From the NCBI GenBank assembly GCA_045643165.1, contig JAZUKF010000065.1, forward strand, positions 1 through 16,393: 16,393 nucleotides of DNA, written 5' to 3'. The translations under genes were made by a program, and so were the position numbers. The notes under the pieces were generated by a model, which worked only from the letters and a program-made list of their open reading frames with translations, did not search any database and had not been told where the DNA came from. Shown here piece after piece: positions 9,080 through 13,067 of this stretch; the stretch's first letter is position 1; every line of letters starts with the position of its first letter. The stretch comes from Acutalibacteraceae bacterium. GTDB lineage: Bacteria > Bacillota > Clostridia > Oscillospirales > Acutalibacteraceae.

Positions 9080-9119
9080 CGGCAAAAACTCACGAAAAGT
9101 TTTTGCCGTTCTGTTTTAT
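9080..9119 (+). terminator. Rho-independent terminator.
   Basis: Perfect 11-bp stem CGGCAAAAACT / AGTTTTTGCCG with the 7-nt loop cacgaaa, followed by TTCTGTTTT. Confidence 0.7.
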
Positions 9120-9239
9120 AAAAAGAAAATTATGAACAAAAATTACAATAGATTTTATTTATGTTAAAAAAAAATACATACAAATTCGGAAAAATAAGGT
9201 ATAATATATATATCAATGAATTTCAAAGGAGAGATCAAT

Positions 9240-9926
9240 ATGGCAAGTGAGAAAATTCTTATTGTAGACGATGACTTAAACATCTGTGATCTTCTTAAAC
9301 TTTATCTTGAAAAAGAAGGTTTCACAACCGTTATCGCAAACGACGGTCCGAAAGCGATTTCCGCTTTTCAGAACGAACAGCCTGCTTTGACACTTCTGGA
9401 TATAATGCTTCCCGGTATTGACGGCTGGCAGGTTTGCAGAGAAATAAGAAAAATTTCAAATAAACCGATTATAATGCTCACCGCAAAGGGCGAAACCTTT
9501 GATAAAGTTTTAGGACTTGAATTAGGTGCAGACGATTATATCGTCAAGCCTTTCGATGCAAAAGAAGTTGTGGCAAGAATAAAAGCCGTGTTAAGAAGAA
9601 CATCTGCGGCAGCGACAGAACTTATTAAAGAAGTTCAATTCGATAAACTTTCCATAAACCTTACGAACTATGAACTTAAAGTAAACGGTGTTCAGGTTGA
9701 TACTCCGCCGAAAGAGATGGAACTTATCTTCCATCTTGCAAGCAATCCCAACAGAGTTTATACAAGAGATCAGTTGCTCGATGAAGTTTGGGGATTTGAC
9801 TATTACGGAGATTCCAGAACGGTTGATGTTCACGTTAAACGTCTGAGAGAAAAACTTGACGGAGTAAGTGATAAATGGGAACTTAAAACCGTTTGGGGTG
9901 TCGGCTACAAATTTGAAACAAAGTAA
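9240..9926 (+). CDS. OmpR/PhoB-family two-component response regulator (REC plus winged-helix DNA-binding domain).
   Basis: ILIVDDD...LLDIMLPGIDGW receiver motifs with phospho-acceptor Asp. C-terminal trans_reg_C (RVYTRDQLLDEVWG...VDVHVKRLREKL). ATG at 9240 is preferred (AAGGAGAG RBS 8 nt upstream) over 9216. Confidence 0.9.
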   Translation: MASEKILIVDDDLNICDLLKLYLEKEGFTTVIANDGPKAISAFQNEQPALTLLDIMLPGIDGWQVCREIRKISNKPIIMLTAKGETFDKVLGLELGADDYIVKPFDAKEVVARIKAVLRRTSAAATELIKEVQFDKLSINLTNYELKVNGVQVDTPPKEMELIFHLASNPNRVYTRDQLLDEVWGFDYYGDSRTVDVHVKRLREKLDGVSDKWELKTVWGVGYKFETK

Positions 9927-9947
9927 TTTTCAGAGGAAGGTTATATT

Positions 9948-11438
9948 ATGTCCGGAAGAAAAAGAATAAAAAGGTCTTCCACTTTCCGAAGATATTTCAT
10001 CAGTATTTTCAGTGCAATTCTTGTTTCGTTCATAATATTAGGCATTTCCATGCTGGCTTTTGTTGCAGGATATTGGCAGCGTGAAACCGTGGAACGTATT
10101 CAATCAAATGTTCAGCATCTTTCACATCTTTCTTCACAGTATTTTGAACTTGAAATTGATGATAAATATCAAAATAATCCTACAATTATGTTGGCGTATT
10201 CTCTTTCCCTTGTTTCTCAATCATTGGGAAGCGGTGCGGATATTTATATCTGCAATCTTAACGGAGATATTATTCTTTGCCGTGATACGCTGAATGTTAT
10301 TTCATCGGGTAATCCTAATCAAATATGTACCGAACATGCCGGTATGAAGGTTCCGTCTTCCGTTATTGAAAATGCGAAAAAGGGTAATTATAAATATGTG
10401 GGAAAAACCGATAAACTTAACAACAGTTTAAATCTTCTTGTGGGTGAGCCGGTAAAGGTCGGCGGTAAAACCATTGCTTTGATTATCTGCACGGAACCTG
10501 TTGAAGAAAATTTAAGTCCCTTTGTAGGTTCAATACTTAAACTGTTTTTGCTGTCCGCATTAGTGGCATTTGTTGTTTCCTTTATAGCGGTGTATATCGT
10601 TACCTATACGATTACAAATCCTTTAAGAAAAATGTCGCAGATTACAAAAAGTTATGCCCGAGGTGATTTCAACGAGCGAATTACCGTTAAAGGTCATAAC
10701 GAACTGACGGAACTTGCGGATGCGTTCAACTCAATGGCACAGTCTCTTTCCGCACTTGAATATTCAAGAAGAAGTTTTGTTGCCAACGTATCCCATGAAT
10801 TAAAAACACCCATGACTTCAATCGGCGGATTTATTGACGGAATACTTGACGGAACTATTCCGCCGGAAAAGGAAGAACATTATCTGAAATTAGTTTCCGG
10901 AGAGGTCAAACGCCTTTCAAGGCTTGTTTCATCCATGCTTAATTTATCGAAAATCGAAGCAGGTGAACTGTCATTAAACCCGAAGGAAATAGACCTTTCG
11001 GAATTGATTTTCAAAACAATGCTATCCTTTGAACAGCAGATAAATAATAAATCCATTGATATTACGGGACTTGATACCATGGATAATAATATAGTCAACG
11101 CTGACGAAGGATTGATTCATCAAGTGGTATATAATCTTATTGATAACGCCGTTAAGTTTACTCCCGAAGGGGGCTACATCAACGTAAGCGTTACGAGAAC
11201 CGATGTAAATACTACCGTTGCCATAAAAAACAGCGGTCAGGGTATTGCACCGGATGAAATCAGAAGAATTTTTGAAAGATTTTATAAGGTGGATAAATCA
11301 CGCAGTCTTGATACAAAAAGTACGGGACTGGGCTTATATATCGTTAAAAGCATTGTTGAAATGCACGGCGGAAGCGTTGAAGCAAACAGTGAAGTCGGTG
11401 AATATACGGAATTTAAATTCACTATTCCTAATTTATAA
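9948..11438 (+). CDS. Sensor histidine kinase with two TM segments flanking an extracytoplasmic sensor domain of about 150 aa, plus HAMP, HisKA and HATPase_c domains (CssS-like architecture).
   Basis: GAGGAAGG RBS. H-box SHELKTPMTSIGGFID. N, G1 and G2 boxes (DNAVKF, GQGI, GLGLYIV). TM1 FISIFSAILVSFIILGISMLAFV and TM2 LFLLSALVAFVVSFIAVYIV. Confidence 0.9.
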   Translation: MSGRKRIKRSSTFRRYFISIFSAILVSFIILGISMLAFVAGYWQRETVERIQSNVQHLSHLSSQYFELEIDDKYQNNPTIMLAYSLSLVSQSLGSGADIYICNLNGDIILCRDTLNVISSGNPNQICTEHAGMKVPSSVIENAKKGNYKYVGKTDKLNNSLNLLVGEPVKVGGKTIALIICTEPVEENLSPFVGSILKLFLLSALVAFVVSFIAVYIVTYTITNPLRKMSQITKSYARGDFNERITVKGHNELTELADAFNSMAQSLSALEYSRRSFVANVSHELKTPMTSIGGFIDGILDGTIPPEKEEHYLKLVSGEVKRLSRLVSSMLNLSKIEAGELSLNPKEIDLSELIFKTMLSFEQQINNKSIDITGLDTMDNNIVNADEGLIHQVVYNLIDNAVKFTPEGGYINVSVTRTDVNTTVAIKNSGQGIAPDEIRRIFERFYKVDKSRSLDTKSTGLGLYIVKSIVEMHGGSVEANSEVGEYTEFKFTIPNL

Positions 11439-11522
11439 AATGTTAAAAACTTTAATATAATTTCTTTAAATAAATATTTTATTATTATTTCAATCATTAC
11501 GATGTGAAAGGAAATGATATAT

Positions 11523-13067
11523 ATGGATGAGTTCAACAACAACCCCTTCAATAACAACCAAAACGATGAAGAGGAAAAAACAAACTCGGATAACGAAAAT
11601 TATCAGGAAAGAAATGAGGAGCCCCGACAAAATCCCGAAAATAATTACGGAAATTCATACGGAAACTCCTATGGAAATTATAACTCACAAAGTTACACTC
11701 CTCCCAACTCAAACCAATATCAAAATAATAATAACGGTAATAATCCCAACAACGGAAATATTTTTCAAAACGGCACATACCGTTACGGAAACACATTTTA
11801 CACTCAGCCTCAACCTGTTAAGAAAAAGAAAAACAAAGGCTTAATTGCATTGATAATCGCCGTCAGTGTTGTTGTGATTTTCTCGGTTGCATTTGCTTTC
11901 GGCTCGTTTCTCTCAGGCAAAAACGTATCCGGCACCGTAGAGGAGCAAAGTCCGGCAGGCGACAATGATACTGTTTTTGAAGCACAAAGCACTCCCAAGG
12001 CATCATCAAACGGCAAGGCACTTTCTTCAACCGATATAGCCAAAGTTGCCAGAGCATCCTCTGTGGGAATTCTTGTTTATTCCGAAAACACCGGATATTA
12101 TCCCGGCTCATCCTCAACGGCAGGTGAAGGAACAGGTATTATCGCAACACGTTCCAAGGATAACAAATATACCTATGTTCTCACCTGTGCCCACGTTATT
12201 TCCTCAAGCGGAATAAAAGTTAAAATTCTTCTTGAAGACGGAACCACATACGATGCGGATATTGTGGGCTATGACGTTCAAACCGATGTGGGAGTTTTGA
12301 GAGTTAAAACAACAAAACTTACCTGTGCAACATTCGGAGAATCCGATGCACTTGAAGTAGGTGAAGAAGTTTATGCCGTAGGAAATCCCGGCGGTTCTGA
12401 ATTTTTCGGTTCCGTAACAAAGGGAATTATTTCCGCAATCGGACGTTCAATCAACAACGATATCGGCTATACCATGGAATGTATTCAGCATGATGCCGCC
12501 ATCAATCCGGGTAACTCCGGCGGTGCATTGCTTAACAATTTAGGACAGGTAATCGGCATTAACTCGTCAAAAATCGCCAGCACAGAATACGAAGGTATGT
12601 CATTCTCCGTTCCGATTAAAACGGCTCTTGAAATCGCTCAAAGTCTTATTAAAACCGGTTATGTTCCCAACAGACCGAAACTCGGTATCTCTTACAGTCT
12701 TGCAACCACCAACGGCACATACGCTATGATAGTTCAAATCAAAGGTCTCCCCTCAGGTTCGCTTATTATCAGAAACATTTCAAGCGACAGCGACCTCAAA
12801 AACAAGGGTGTCCAGGTGGGTGATATTATCACGGCGGTAAACGGCAAAAAACTTGATAAAGCAGATACTCTTCTTGACGTAATCGACAACAGTAAAGTCG
12901 GCACAAAAATCAAATTAAGCATTTGCAGAGTAAACACCGACTACACGCTGAAAGAATTTGACGTAACGGTAAAACTTGTTGAGGATAAAGGCTCAACGGC
13001 GGAAGAAGAAACAACCACCGCCATGAATCCCTTTGATTACTTTGAACAGTACGGTTTCGGTAATTAA
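11523..13067 (+). CDS. htrA: Membrane-anchored HtrA/DegP-family trypsin-like serine protease with a C-terminal PDZ domain and an N/Q/Y-rich low-complexity N-terminal extension.
   Basis: Catalytic triad contexts LTCAHV (His), DVGVLRV (Asp) and GNSGGALLN (Ser). PDZ region GDIITAVNGKKL. Single TM (LIALIIAVSVVVIFSVAFAFG) after about 100 low-complexity residues. ATG at 11523 is preferred (AAAGGAAA RBS 10 nt upstream); an alternative ATG lies at 11514. Confidence 0.85.
   Translation: MDEFNNNPFNNNQNDEEEKTNSDNENYQERNEEPRQNPENNYGNSYGNSYGNYNSQSYTPPNSNQYQNNNNGNNPNNGNIFQNGTYRYGNTFYTQPQPVKKKKNKGLIALIIAVSVVVIFSVAFAFGSFLSGKNVSGTVEEQSPAGDNDTVFEAQSTPKASSNGKALSSTDIAKVARASSVGILVYSENTGYYPGSSSTAGEGTGIIATRSKDNKYTYVLTCAHVISSSGIKVKILLEDGTTYDADIVGYDVQTDVGVLRVKTTKLTCATFGESDALEVGEEVYAVGNPGGSEFFGSVTKGIISAIGRSINNDIGYTMECIQHDAAINPGNSGGALLNNLGQVIGINSSKIASTEYEGMSFSVPIKTALEIAQSLIKTGYVPNRPKLGISYSLATTNGTYAMIVQIKGLPSGSLIIRNISSDSDLKNKGVQVGDIITAVNGKKLDKADTLLDVIDNSKVGTKIKLSICRVNTDYTLKEFDVTVKLVEDKGSTAEEETTTAMNPFDYFEQYGFGN
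11646..11681 (+). repeat. Three tandem 12-nt codon-level repeats encoding (Y-G-N-S/Y)x3 inside the htrA 5' region.
   Basis: TACGGAAATTCA / TACGGAAACTCC / TATGGAAATTAT read directly from the sequence. Embedded in a longer N/Q/Y/G-rich low-complexity coding stretch (11523 to about 11830). Confidence 0.5.

Follow-up and report, generated by a model that had tools for sequence, protein, structure and literature searches.

Bases 11523–11840 of the window (the whole stretch of 16,393 nucleotides analysed here) code for the N-terminal tail of an HtrA protease that is anchored in the membrane in type II topology; this tail is translated, lies in the cytoplasm and is intrinsically disordered. It consists of an acidic head, a Tyr-studded segment and a poly-Lys stretch, a three-part plan that is old and spans the Oscillospirales-type Clostridia. 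The best explanation, to which we assign a probability of about 0.4, is that the conserved tail makes multivalent, Tyr-mediated associations at the inner membrane face, which would cluster or position HtrA. Coordinates are given in Table 1.

Table 1. Features of the htrA region of the window (aa, residues of the HtrA product).
Feature	Position	Strand	Basis
OmpR-family response regulator (RR), gene 1 of the conserved RR-HK-HtrA cassette	9216–9926	+	closest to MtrA/YycF, below cut-offs
HAMP-HisKA-HATPase sensor histidine kinase (HK), gene 2 of the cassette	9948–11438	+	Pfam, synteny
Ribosome-binding site AAAGGA, 10 nt 5′ of ATG 11523	11507–11512	+	sequence reading
htrA-like CDS, S1C serine protease with a type II membrane anchor and one PDZ domain	11523–13067	+	Pfam, NCBIfam and PDB matches
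Acidic head (aa 1–40, MDEFNNNPFNNNQNDEEEK...)	11523–11642	+	12 D/E, 3 K/R, 1 Y
Tyr-studded polar low-complexity segment (aa 41–97)	11643–11813	+	9 Y, 2 F, 0 D/E, 1 R; N/Q/G/S/P-rich
Imperfect 12-nt repeat encoding YGNS-YGNS-YGNY	11646–11681	+	TRF
Polybasic juxtamembrane stretch PVKKKKNKG (aa 98–106), positive-inside topology signal	11814–11840	+	composition
Single transmembrane (TM) anchor (aa 107–130)	11841–11912	+	hydropathy maximum 3.04; AlphaFold helix 106–130
Extracytoplasmic disordered linker (aa 131–165), S/T/E-rich, without Tyr	11913–12017	+	low pLDDT
Trypsin_2 protease domain (aa 203–346)	12129–12560	+	Pfam, E = 9e-33
PDZ domain (PDZ_2, aa 387–481)	12681–12965	+	Pfam, E = 1e-9

The htrA frame is uninterrupted from 11514 or 11523 to 13067, and translation from the ATG at 11523 gives a product of 514 amino acids. 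The alternative upstream ATG at 11514 is separated from AAAGGA by a spacer of only 1 nt, and the proteins of relatives begin MDE.., in agreement with a start at 11523. The further in-frame start codons, TTG 11850 and GTG 11874, each lie within the TM helix. The ribosome-binding site, the conserved MDE.. head and the lack of an in-frame start between ATG 11523 and the TM segment together indicate that the tail is translated, as the preliminary description had supposed. In the product, H224, D255 and S332 (in GNSGG) form a His-Asp-Ser triad that is invariant in an alignment of 60 sequences, and the PDZ domain is folded with confidence in the AlphaFold model. The protein matches NCBIfam degP_htrA_DO with E = 1.5e-68, yet under the curated cut-off, and has DegP, DegQ and DegS as PDB relatives with E values down to 4e-41; in the PDB search no relative of solved structure reached aa 1–150. 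With its trypsin-fold triad and PDZ domain, the window protein is an HtrA/DegP (MEROPS S1C) serine protease, and with its tail, polybasic patch and single TM segment it is a Gram-positive membrane-anchored HtrA of the Bacillus subtilis HtrA type.

The same description had placed the tail in the cytoplasm ahead of one TM anchor, and hydropathy, the AlphaFold helix at 106–130 and the charges flanking it bear this out, with KKKKNK on the N-side of the TM segment against one Lys only on the C-side. The N-in topology is fixed by the poly-Lys stretch at aa 98–106. In the AlphaFold model aa 1–96 have no secondary structure and a pLDDT of 35–47, so the suggested disorder is supported by prediction. 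Two shadow ORFs overlapping the tail, at 11527–11844 (+) and 11548–11796 (–), were rejected as genes as their frames are not consistently open in relatives; the HtrA frame is the sole frame open in 39 of 39 long tails. An Rfam scan of the whole window gave no match, and an RNA element is therefore not the explanation.

A tail of this kind had been called unusual, Firmicute HtrA N-termini being held to be short and basic. Neither statement is supported by comparison: the B. subtilis HtrA tail is already 47 aa long, acidic and polar, and a long tail is the rule in the large clade to which the window protein belongs. The relatives are Oscillospiraceae, Acutalibacteraceae and 'Clostridia bacterium' MAGs, from ruminant gut for the most part, and the nearest is 62–70% identical. 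Tails of 81–198 aa were present in the 60 closest homologues inspected, tails of more than 80 aa in 122 of the 140 representatives of 50% clusters that have a TM segment (37–58% identity; median 131 aa), and tails of 87–234 aa in 39 of 64 species-level loci. Because almost all related gut Clostridia carry such a tail, it is a lineage trait, not a one-off oddity. One sister clade has lost it: the tail is only 10–14 aa long and the same cassette is kept, showing that the tail module is dispensable.

What is held in common is the layout. The acidic head opens with MDEF, MDENN or the like; its motif M-[DNS]-[DE]-[NEFD]-[NF] is kept in 251 long tails and recurs in B. subtilis HtrA as MDNYRDEN. Across 39 loci the final 10 tail residues are 47% K/R and the equivalent middle segments contain on average 13.5% Y, 25% N+Q and 3.8% hydrophobics. 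A homology search with the tail plus TM segment alone returned 23 candidates, none of them significant, and the tail is thus untraceable by sequence. It had been considered that relatives might share a conserved rather than low-complexity extension; an equivalent extension is indeed shared, but only its composition is conserved. The plan is preserved in architecture and composition, and the sequence does not align.

The tail might instead be tolerated filler: a short tail of the ancestral HtrA would have expanded into a disordered and mostly functionless one. It would have grown by repeat amplification, stayed soluble through selection against hydrophobics and taken its flavour from mutational bias and chance Tyr units. 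We regard this as possible but doubtful. It would fit the unalignable sequence of the tail, its failure to find matches in the tail-only search, its frequent indels, and an identity of 26–30% in the tail against 67–69% in the ectodomain. The spacer residues also track GC. Across the 39 loci the Asn content of the tail declines as GC3 climbs (rho –0.64) and G+P+A climbs with it (rho +0.85), the spacer being Asn in AT-rich genomes and Gly/Pro/Ala in GC-rich ones, and the Asn-richness of the window's tail is the low-GC version of this spacer. The loss of the whole tail in one clade that retained the cassette, and the ability of B. subtilis HtrA to function with 47 aa and no Tyr-rich segment, point the same way. 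A cytoplasmic linker of PcrA in related genomes is similarly S/Y/G-flavoured, which suggests a generic disorder style of the lineage.

The behaviour of Tyr speaks against filler. Despite its AT-rich codons, the Tyr content of the tail (8.1% ± 1.9%) has no significant trend with GC3 in the 39 loci (rho –0.22, p = 0.18). We used the extracytoplasmic linker of the same gene, where mutational bias is equal, as an internal control for tail composition: Tyr makes up 13.5% of the cytoplasmic segment, 0.3% of this disordered linker and 5.3% of the folded ectodomain (39/39 loci; kinship is ignored in all these composition tests over loci). In unsaturated pairs, dN/dS was 0.23–0.44 for the tail, below 1, and 0.01–0.11 for the ectodomain. 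Filler is also hard to reconcile with the presence of the tail, at a median of 131 aa, down to 37% ectodomain identity, and with conservation of the three-part plan and head motif.

According to the preferred explanation, the Tyr-rich polar segment would act as a multivalent 'sticker-and-spacer' region that mediates weak self- or partner association on the inner membrane face. The acidic head, with a net charge of about –9, could pair with the basic juxtamembrane patch and may assist association. The outcome would be a protease clustered or positioned, for example, near secretion or division sites or the co-encoded kinase, the tail serving as an accessory module that is probably dispensable for catalysis. 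Besides the translation, topology, disorder and lineage-wide occurrence of the tail and the selection on its composition, its specificity favours this explanation: neighbourhoods totalling 666 kb contain 827 ORFs, and only the HtrA tails and three PcrA linkers have a segment of this kind. In composition the segment resembles the [G/S]Y[G/S] domains of the FUS family, being uncharged and polar with about 14–16% Tyr and very few aliphatics (9 Y in 57 residues, 0 D/E). FUS-family proteins are eukaryotic, soluble and RNA-binding, and are described by the sticker-and-spacer model. In contrast to them, even Tyr spacing could not be demonstrated in the HtrA tail: aromatic spacing in the window's segment was no more regular than that of shuffles (p = 0.47), and relatives gave a weak trend, 79% of segments having a CV under the shuffled mean, with p < 0.05 in only 16%. 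Work on the FUS low-complexity domain is listed in PMC10643395.

Clustering through cytoplasmic disordered regions is known for membrane-anchored bacterial proteins, namely PodJ of Caulobacter (PMC9684454, PMC8980812) and Rv1747 of Mycobacterium tuberculosis (reviewed in bioRxiv 10.1101/2020.08.05.239012). Like the window protein, these are bitopic or polytopic membrane proteins with a cytoplasmic disordered region, and PodJ additionally modulates a histidine kinase; unlike the tail, they have other compositions and extra coiled-coil or FHA modules, and there is no homology. A streptococcal HtrA with a short N-terminus localises to the septum (PMC3188284), so localisation needs no such tail. 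Also counting against the preferred explanation are the rate of non-synonymous evolution, 3–25 times higher in the tail than in the ectodomain, and the sister clade that keeps the cassette with a tail of 10–14 aa. A stronger version of the association model seems unlikely to us: the tail, prion-like, Tyr-rich and tethered to the membrane, would condense in two dimensions on the cytoplasmic leaflet. Such condensates would set both the site and the density of this extracytoplasmic quality-control protease, and could couple it physically to the co-encoded kinase. If true, many gut Clostridia, a large group, would have inside-out control of envelope proteolysis, with feedback into the two-component system.

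Gram-positive HtrAs have been treated as a TM anchor plus ectodomain, and the review PMC12826053 omits the cytoplasmic side; our literature search found no description of a low-complexity cytoplasmic tail on a Gram-positive HtrA. B. subtilis HtrA (YkdA), and by extension HtrB, is a membrane-anchored protease of the secretion-stress response and resembles the window protein in having an S1C domain, one PDZ domain and a single N-in TM segment. Its tail is also comparable, beginning MDNYRDEN.. (MDEFNNN.. in the window), acidic and Asn-rich with KKKRG before the TM segment, but is only 47 aa long and lacks a Tyr-rich low-complexity segment. In Brevibacillus HtrAw and other Gram-positive HtrAs, the TM-containing N-terminal domain is an anchor, unneeded for folding or activity, and autoprocessing downstream of the TM segment can release the ectodomain (PMC5359297), but no low-complexity cytoplasmic extension is described. 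Staphylococcus aureus HtrA2 is a Gram-positive paralogue with a large extra N-terminal region, predicted to be an adhesion-type domain and not a cytoplasmic low-complexity tail (PMC12826053). The present clade, in contrast, has long retained a Tyr-rich disordered cytoplasmic tail of 100–230 aa in plan and composition only. Should this tail cluster or position the protease, or connect it with the kinase, bacteria would provide a natural case of a low-complexity domain that is tethered to the membrane and organises an envelope function. The tail would then also be well suited to studying which properties of such domains selection maintains, with Tyr fixed and spacers drifting with GC. If it is tolerated filler only, the finding is ordinary.

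The tail could also be a turnover or signalling handle, which we consider improbable. Its disorder would give a cytoplasmic or membrane AAA+ protease, for example FtsH, a hold for degrading HtrA, either full-length or as the tail-plus-TM stub left by ectodomain autoprocessing, or the released stub would itself signal to the cytoplasm. FtsH reportedly needs at least about 20 residues of free tail, a threshold ascribed to Chiba et al. in 2000. The tail is disordered and exposed, the 10–14 aa of the short-tail clade fall under that length, and the gene lies within a two-component system cassette. Gram-positive HtrAs autoprocess just downstream of the TM segment and an N-terminal stub remains (PMC5359297), and in B. 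subtilis RasP has an influence on the amounts of HtrA and HtrB (PMC8767453). However, some 20 residues of any sequence would suffice, and a length of 100–230 aa and the enrichment in Tyr are left unexplained.

It is very unlikely that the Tyr clusters of the cytoplasmic tail (YGNSYGNSYGNY) are phosphorylated by a tyrosine kinase of the bacterium to regulate the protease from inside. Tyr is the one residue kept high in every long tail and the YG-x motif recurs, but no such kinase is encoded nearby within the window. BY-kinases such as CpsD carry (YGX)n Tyr clusters as C-terminal parts of the kinase itself. The HtrA cluster is N-terminal, on a protease in which Pfam finds no kinase domain, and does not belong with them; the resemblance is one of motif only.

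The N/Q/Y-rich, prion-like composition noted at the outset for the pre-TM region stands. The tail of approximately 105 aa is 30% N, 10% Y, 9% E, 9% Q, 8% P and 7% G, and relative to the window's 15 other ORFs it is enriched in Asn (31 observed, 5.3 expected, p = 4e-16), depleted in ILVMFWCA (6 observed, 38.8 expected, p = 3e-14) and of lower entropy (3.22 against 3.95 bits). Its low-complexity half is uncharged and non-hydrophobic. The richest 80 residues (5–84) contain 37 Q/N, and the maximum elsewhere in the window is 18; the classical prion-like threshold, said to come from Michelitsch and Weissman in 2000, is 30 Q+N per 80 residues. That a Q/N-rich tail passing this threshold, and disordered, is a true prion or amyloid switch converting to self-propagating amyloid is nevertheless highly improbable. 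The tail contains 8 prolines and a strongly acidic head with 12 D/E, and it is tethered to the membrane. Moreover, Q/N falls to 8% in GC-rich relatives in which the tail persists, and Q/N is thus not the conserved property. There is a Clostridial precedent in the prion domain of Clostridium botulinum Rho (PMC4703818), likewise an Asn/Gln-rich disordered segment that passes prion-composition screens, and the domains reported together with predicted bacterial prion domains include PDZ (PMC4606120). Rho, however, is soluble and its domain is experimentally amyloidogenic, whereas the HtrA tail is membrane-tethered and Pro-containing, and its conserved feature is Tyr, not Q/N.

The preliminary description read tandem YGNS repeats in the tail as a recent expansion, and suggested that the region could be hypervariable and slippage-prone. 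The repeats exist, TRF calling 2.8 copies at 11646–11679 with 81% matches and a score of 47, but they do not exceed what codon composition gives: 519 of 5000 codon shuffles had an equal or better tandem self-match of the tail (p about 0.1). The copies (TACGGAAATTCA, TACGGAAACTCC and TATGGAAATTAT) differ mostly at synonymous third positions. This divergence, together with the shuffles, indicates that the repeat is not recent and not clearly beyond chance. Comparing N-terminal length among strains of related species, as had been proposed, showed in-frame, repeat-unit-sized indels nearly all confined to the tail (clusters at ≥90% identity). Over evolutionary time, then, indels arise readily in this region, and this part of the slippage claim can be kept, although recent expansion of the YGNS repeat cannot. 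The tail is remodelled through in-frame repeat-unit indels and fast substitution; in B. subtilis HtrA, unlike here, strain length polymorphism lies mainly in an extracellular poly-Ser linker.

It is scarcely credible that the tail is a contingency locus, in which frequent slippage of tandem codon repeats would switch the protein or tune it from one generation to the next. Strains of related species are distinguished by in-frame repeat-unit indels, but the window has only 2.8 imperfect 12-nt copies, synonymously diverged and within codon-shuffle expectation, and several 90%-identity clusters have only 3–5 gap columns in the tail. On/off switching is impossible as the repeat unit is a multiple of 3, and the tail does not contain the long near-perfect repeat altering frame or expression that marks a simple-sequence contingency locus. 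The least probable reading, that the region is an artefact of a mis-called start or an assembly error, can be practically dismissed: the window consists of one metagenome-assembled contig of 16.4 kb and there is no close strain for comparison, but no alternative start precedes the TM segment, the ribosome-binding site and MDE head are conserved, the frame is open in 39 independent assemblies, and TRF found in the tail no perfect repeat long enough to be collapsed in assembly.

The neighbourhood of htrA was also compared. A promoter and terminator scan found no terminator-like site between the kinase gene and htrA, hit counts being at shuffle level. Against the YycF model, with a cut-off of 340 bits, the response regulator reaches 242, and against MtrA, with a cut-off of 300, it reaches 247; the kinase matches WalK over its C-terminal catalytic part only (273 bits against a cut-off of 725). 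With these scores below the equivalog cut-offs, the arrangement resembles the WalRK/YycFG or CssRS cassettes and is not a member of either. Docking of the tail to the kinase was considered and set aside: the alignable part of the kinase, ~490 residues, is the same whether a clade has short or long tails, and there is thus no sign of a kinase region lost with the tail. B. subtilis HtrA and HtrB are under two-component system control (PMC8767453, PMC12826053), with cssRS directly upstream of htrB ('htrA2') and regulating both htrA and htrB (PMC12826053). The RR-HK-HtrA synteny of the window, with htrA as the third gene, is retained in 60 of 69 loci.

The htrA-like gene encodes a protein with Pfam matches to Trypsin_2 at residues 203-346 (E=9e-33) and PDZ_2 at residues 387-481. 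Its nearest NCBIfam models are Do/HtrA, with scores under their cut-offs, and the matching solved structures (DegP, DegQ, DegS and MucD) cover only residues ~155-502. Because H224, D255 and S332 were invariant in a 60-sequence alignment, the protein should be an active protease. Hydropathy analysis gave a single outstanding hydrophobic segment, with its peak at residues 107-125; in the AlphaFold model this transmembrane (TM) segment is helix 106-130. It is flanked by KKKKNK on the N-terminal side and by just one Lys and two Glu on the C-terminal side. Residues 1-105, hereafter the tail, are predicted to be cytoplasmic because of the positive-inside rule and because the protease must be extracellular.

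The tail consists of 30% N, 10% Y, 9% E, 9% Q, 8% P and 7% G. Set against the 15 remaining ORFs of the window, it has about six times as much Asn (p=4e-16) and few ILVMFWCA residues (6 observed versus 39 expected, p=3e-14). Its sequence entropy of 3.22 bits lies below the background value of 3.95, and its best 80-residue stretch contains 37 Q/N, whereas no such stretch elsewhere in the window exceeds 18. With 60 homologues as input, AlphaFold predicted residues 1-96 to lack secondary structure (pLDDT 35-47), and gave pLDDT >90 for the protease and PDZ domains. The N/Q/Y-rich low complexity noted in a preliminary description was thus borne out, and the region is predicted to be disordered.

AAAGGA lies 10 nt 5' of ATG 11523, and the next in-frame starts, TTG 11850 and GTG 11874, both fall within the TM helix. 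The head M-[DNS]-[DE]-[NEFD]-[NF] is common to the N-termini of relatives, and the HtrA frame is the only one open across the full tail in 39 independent assemblies. Because of this ribosome-binding sequence, the lack of a usable start before the TM segment, the kept head and the open frame, we judge the tail region to be coding and not an artefact, in agreement with the earlier view that the extension is translated. Overlapping ORFs at 11527-11844 (+, 105 aa) and 11548-11796 (-, 82 aa) were rejected as genes, since in most relatives these frames are not open; we regard them as by-products of low-complexity sequence. An Rfam scan of the window gave no match.

Coordinates and composition of the features discussed
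Feature	Position or sample	Strand	Details
OmpR-family response regulator	9216-9926	+	same strand as htrA; precedes kinase gene
HAMP-HisKA-HATPase kinase	9948-11438	+	same strand as htrA; precedes htrA
htrA-like CDS	11514/11523-13067	+	ORF; 514 aa from ATG 11523
Acidic head	aa 1-40	+	12 D/E, 3 K/R
Low-complexity segment	aa 41-97	+	9 Y, no D/E, 1 R
Polybasic stretch	directly after aa 97	+	PVKKKKNKG
First 40% of tail	39 long tails		D+E 24%, Y 2% (acidic)
Next part of tail	39 long tails		Y 13.6%, N+Q 25%, G 11%, P 12%, hydrophobics 3.8%
Last ten tail residues	39 long tails		K/R 47%
PcrA/UvrD helicases with S/Y/G-rich linker	L027:7212-9686, L029:2347-4902, L065:7239-9797 (genome loci)		downstream of htrA, one subclade

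The best 120 homologues were all 490-613 aa long, and a pre-TM tail of 81-198 aa was present in 60/60 whose N-termini were inspected. A search of 1.84 billion representatives with the TM segment and ectodomain only returned 150 proteins at 37-58% identity; the TM segment was present in 140, where the pre-TM length had a median of 131 aa and a maximum of 316, and exceeded 80 aa in 122. At species level, 64 ORFs were recovered from 69 genome loci, and 39 of the 64 had tails of 87-234 aa. These long-tail loci come from Oscillospiraceae, Acutalibacteraceae and 'Clostridia' MAGs, chiefly of the ruminant gut. The extension, first taken to be unusual, is instead a clade-wide module with conserved composition, and more interesting than a singular oddity. 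The remaining 25 ORFs are short-tailed (mostly 10-14 aa, e.g. MEDNKKKSSGSK and LETEKKKKLRK). Their proteins form essentially one clade, sister to the window's group, in a neighbour-joining tree of ectodomains, which suggests that the tail was lost once.

The window tail matches the three-part plan of the 39 long tails: acidic head, Tyr-bearing low-complexity segment and polybasic stretch. A homology search with tail plus TM as query found nothing, and identity between the window protein and its nearest relatives is 26-30% in the tail against 67-69% in the ectodomain. Repeat units are lineage-specific, with YGNS in the window and YSQNN, PYSQN, YNG or NNGYPYGAQ in others. The head aside, the only alignable pieces are Tyr/Trp-rich subclade motifs a few residues N-terminal of the poly-Lys: YYTGTPDN (27/251 tails, e.g. 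proteins P0002-P0028), Y[QK]WN[FY][ED]DY (19/251, e.g. P0349-P0353 and P0380-P0383) and NPYPYAN...YAYP (21/251, e.g. loci L017-L037). The window protein has YRYGNTFY at this position.

Among the long tails, with kinship ignored, higher gene GC3 goes with less Asn (rho -0.64) and more G+P+A (rho +0.85). Whole-tail Tyr is 8.1% +/- 1.9%, its trend with GC3 being non-significant (rho -0.22, p 0.18, kinship likewise ignored). Tyr codons are AT-rich, and the GC content of the window is 37%. Because of the opposite trends and the steady Tyr, we read the Asn-richness of the window tail as the low-GC form of a generic polar spacer. A second disordered stretch of the same proteins, the extracellular linker, served as internal control: Tyr makes up 13.5% of the cytoplasmic low-complexity segment, 0.3% of the linker and 5.3% of the folded ectodomain (39/39 loci, kinship ignored). 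For pairs with unsaturated dS, dN/dS was 0.23-0.44 in the tail versus 0.01-0.11 in the ectodomain. Constraint on the tail is relaxed yet present, and composition, chiefly Tyr, is its conserved property. Among 827 ORFs in 666 kb of neighbourhoods, such a segment was found only in HtrA tails and in three PcrA/UvrD helicases, as a FUS-like linker of 55-85 aa that joins the helicase core to the C-terminal Tudor domain. Tyr-rich low-complexity linkers are not exclusive to HtrA in this lineage.

The 12-nt repeat at 11646-11679 (TRF: period 12, 2.8 copies, 81% matches) has copies TACGGAAATTCA, TACGGAAACTCC and TATGGAAATTAT, which differ chiefly at synonymous positions, and ~10% of tail codon shuffles gave an equal or better tandem self-match. 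By both results, the YGNS codons are not the recent expansion that had been proposed. The nearest database relative is only 62-70% identical; indels were followed in ten clusters at >=90% identity, all from related species. Length varies within these clusters and, start-codon call artefacts aside, gaps are nearly confined to the tail (in example clusters, 13 v 1, 5 v 0, 8 v 0 and 7 v 2 gap columns on the N- v the C-terminal side of the TM segment). Tail gaps are in frame and sized like repeat units (YSS/YAP, NGY, EPEVTA, NNAYQH, AEETVAP), and variable columns were denser in the tail in 9/10 clusters, up to ~five-fold. The suggested proneness to slippage therefore holds over evolutionary time; nothing points to phase variation.

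A database search with the ectodomain of B. subtilis HtrA matched entries for this protein (YkdA) at 100% identity. In these entries MDNYRDENRTKGNENEVFLTKENDQSASYSARNVIHDQEKKKRGFGWFRP forms the N-terminus and leads into the TM segment. This tail resembles that of the window in head motif, acidic Asn-rich stretch and polybasic patch, but is just 47 aa long and lacks the Tyr-rich segment; it departs from the short, basic N-terminus said to typify Firmicute HtrAs. Because of the shared elements, the window tail looks like an expanded form of an older HtrA tail. At strain level, B. subtilis HtrA variants (P0402-P0519) are 446-455 aa long; SSS/SSSSSS indels within the extracellular poly-Ser linker and alternative start calls account for most of the differences, and a single Asn insertion lies in the cytoplasmic tail. 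IDR tails are common on bacterial membrane proteins. In published descriptions, the HtrA N-terminal domain anchors the protein in the membrane, is not required for activity and is removed by autoprocessing C-terminal of the TM segment (PMC5359297). Cytoplasmic tails are absent from a 2025 review of Gram-positive HtrAs (PMC12826053), and a survey of predicted bacterial prion domains names PDZ, without detail, as one of the domains found with them (PMC4606120).

The tail is a real, coding feature, and we hold the account of its anatomy, topology, disorder, lineage-wide retention and Tyr-specific compositional constraint with high confidence. From it we infer a function. A polar, uncharged chain in which Tyr recurs every few residues would make many weak contacts; tethered to the membrane via the polybasic patch and capped by the acidic head, it could self-associate or bind partners at the inner leaflet, and the protease could thereby be clustered or positioned. 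PodJ and Rv1747, bacterial membrane proteins that cluster via cytoplasmic disordered regions, are precedents, the former being a modulator of a histidine kinase as well (PMC9684454, PMC8980812, bioRxiv 10.1101/2020.08.05.239012). Clustering as such is a tentative proposal, and description and clustering together, our best explanation, have a probability of roughly 40%. That the tail is tolerated filler with no specific role is the main rival, possible if doubtful: one clade has lost the tail, the tail evolves fast and PcrA carries a similar linker, but the Tyr data speak against it. A role as a handle for degradation or signalling is improbable and phosphotyrosine regulation still more so, and a true prion, a contingency locus and an artefact, in that falling order, deserve very little credence.

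The order regulator, kinase, htrA (window 9216-13067; loci L001-L068) is kept in 60/69 species-level loci, including those around short-tail htrA genes; of the nine exceptions, upstream flank is under 1 kb in seven, a contig end truncates one and the last is a distant CPR protein. Across the loci that keep the order, identity is 70-89% for the regulator and only 37-73% for the kinase. The closest models are MtrA/YycF for the regulator and, for the kinase, WalK in its catalytic part, with scores under NCBIfam cut-offs in both cases; the cassette is similar to walRK...htrC or cssRS/htrB yet by these cut-offs belongs to neither. Scans with counts at chance level gave a terminator-like site at 9080-9108, upstream of the regulator gene, a promoter-like site at 11432-11461, and no terminator-like site between the kinase gene and htrA.

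Some loci are oddly labelled (L022, L023, L026, L028, L033 and L061; also L046 and L066). The first six share the identical 11-aa tail LETEKKKKLRK, very short branches in the ectodomain tree and Clostridia-type cassettes, under titles of Bacteroidaceae, Phascolarctobacterium, Butyricicoccaceae, Paludibacteraceae and Muribaculaceae 'cleanbin' isolates; another locus carries the title Croceicoccus. These look like mis-binned or mislabelled contigs.

C-terminal of the PDZ domain, a short aromatic peptide (window 13026-13064, residues 502-514, NPFDYFEQYGFGN) is kept at the extreme C-terminus across the clade, with consensus NPFDYFxQFG in the 60-sequence alignment, and is disordered in the AlphaFold prediction. 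C-terminal aromatic peptides are ligands of HtrA PDZ domains (DegS and YxF), and by analogy this one could serve as an intrinsic ligand of the PDZ domain or as an autoinhibitor. Finally, the kinase-htrA spacer at 11450-11491, just 5' of the htrA ribosome-binding site, carries ~3.1 copies (65% matches) of an AT-rich 14-nt unit, CTTTAATATAATTT, and may be a regulator-binding or promoter region.
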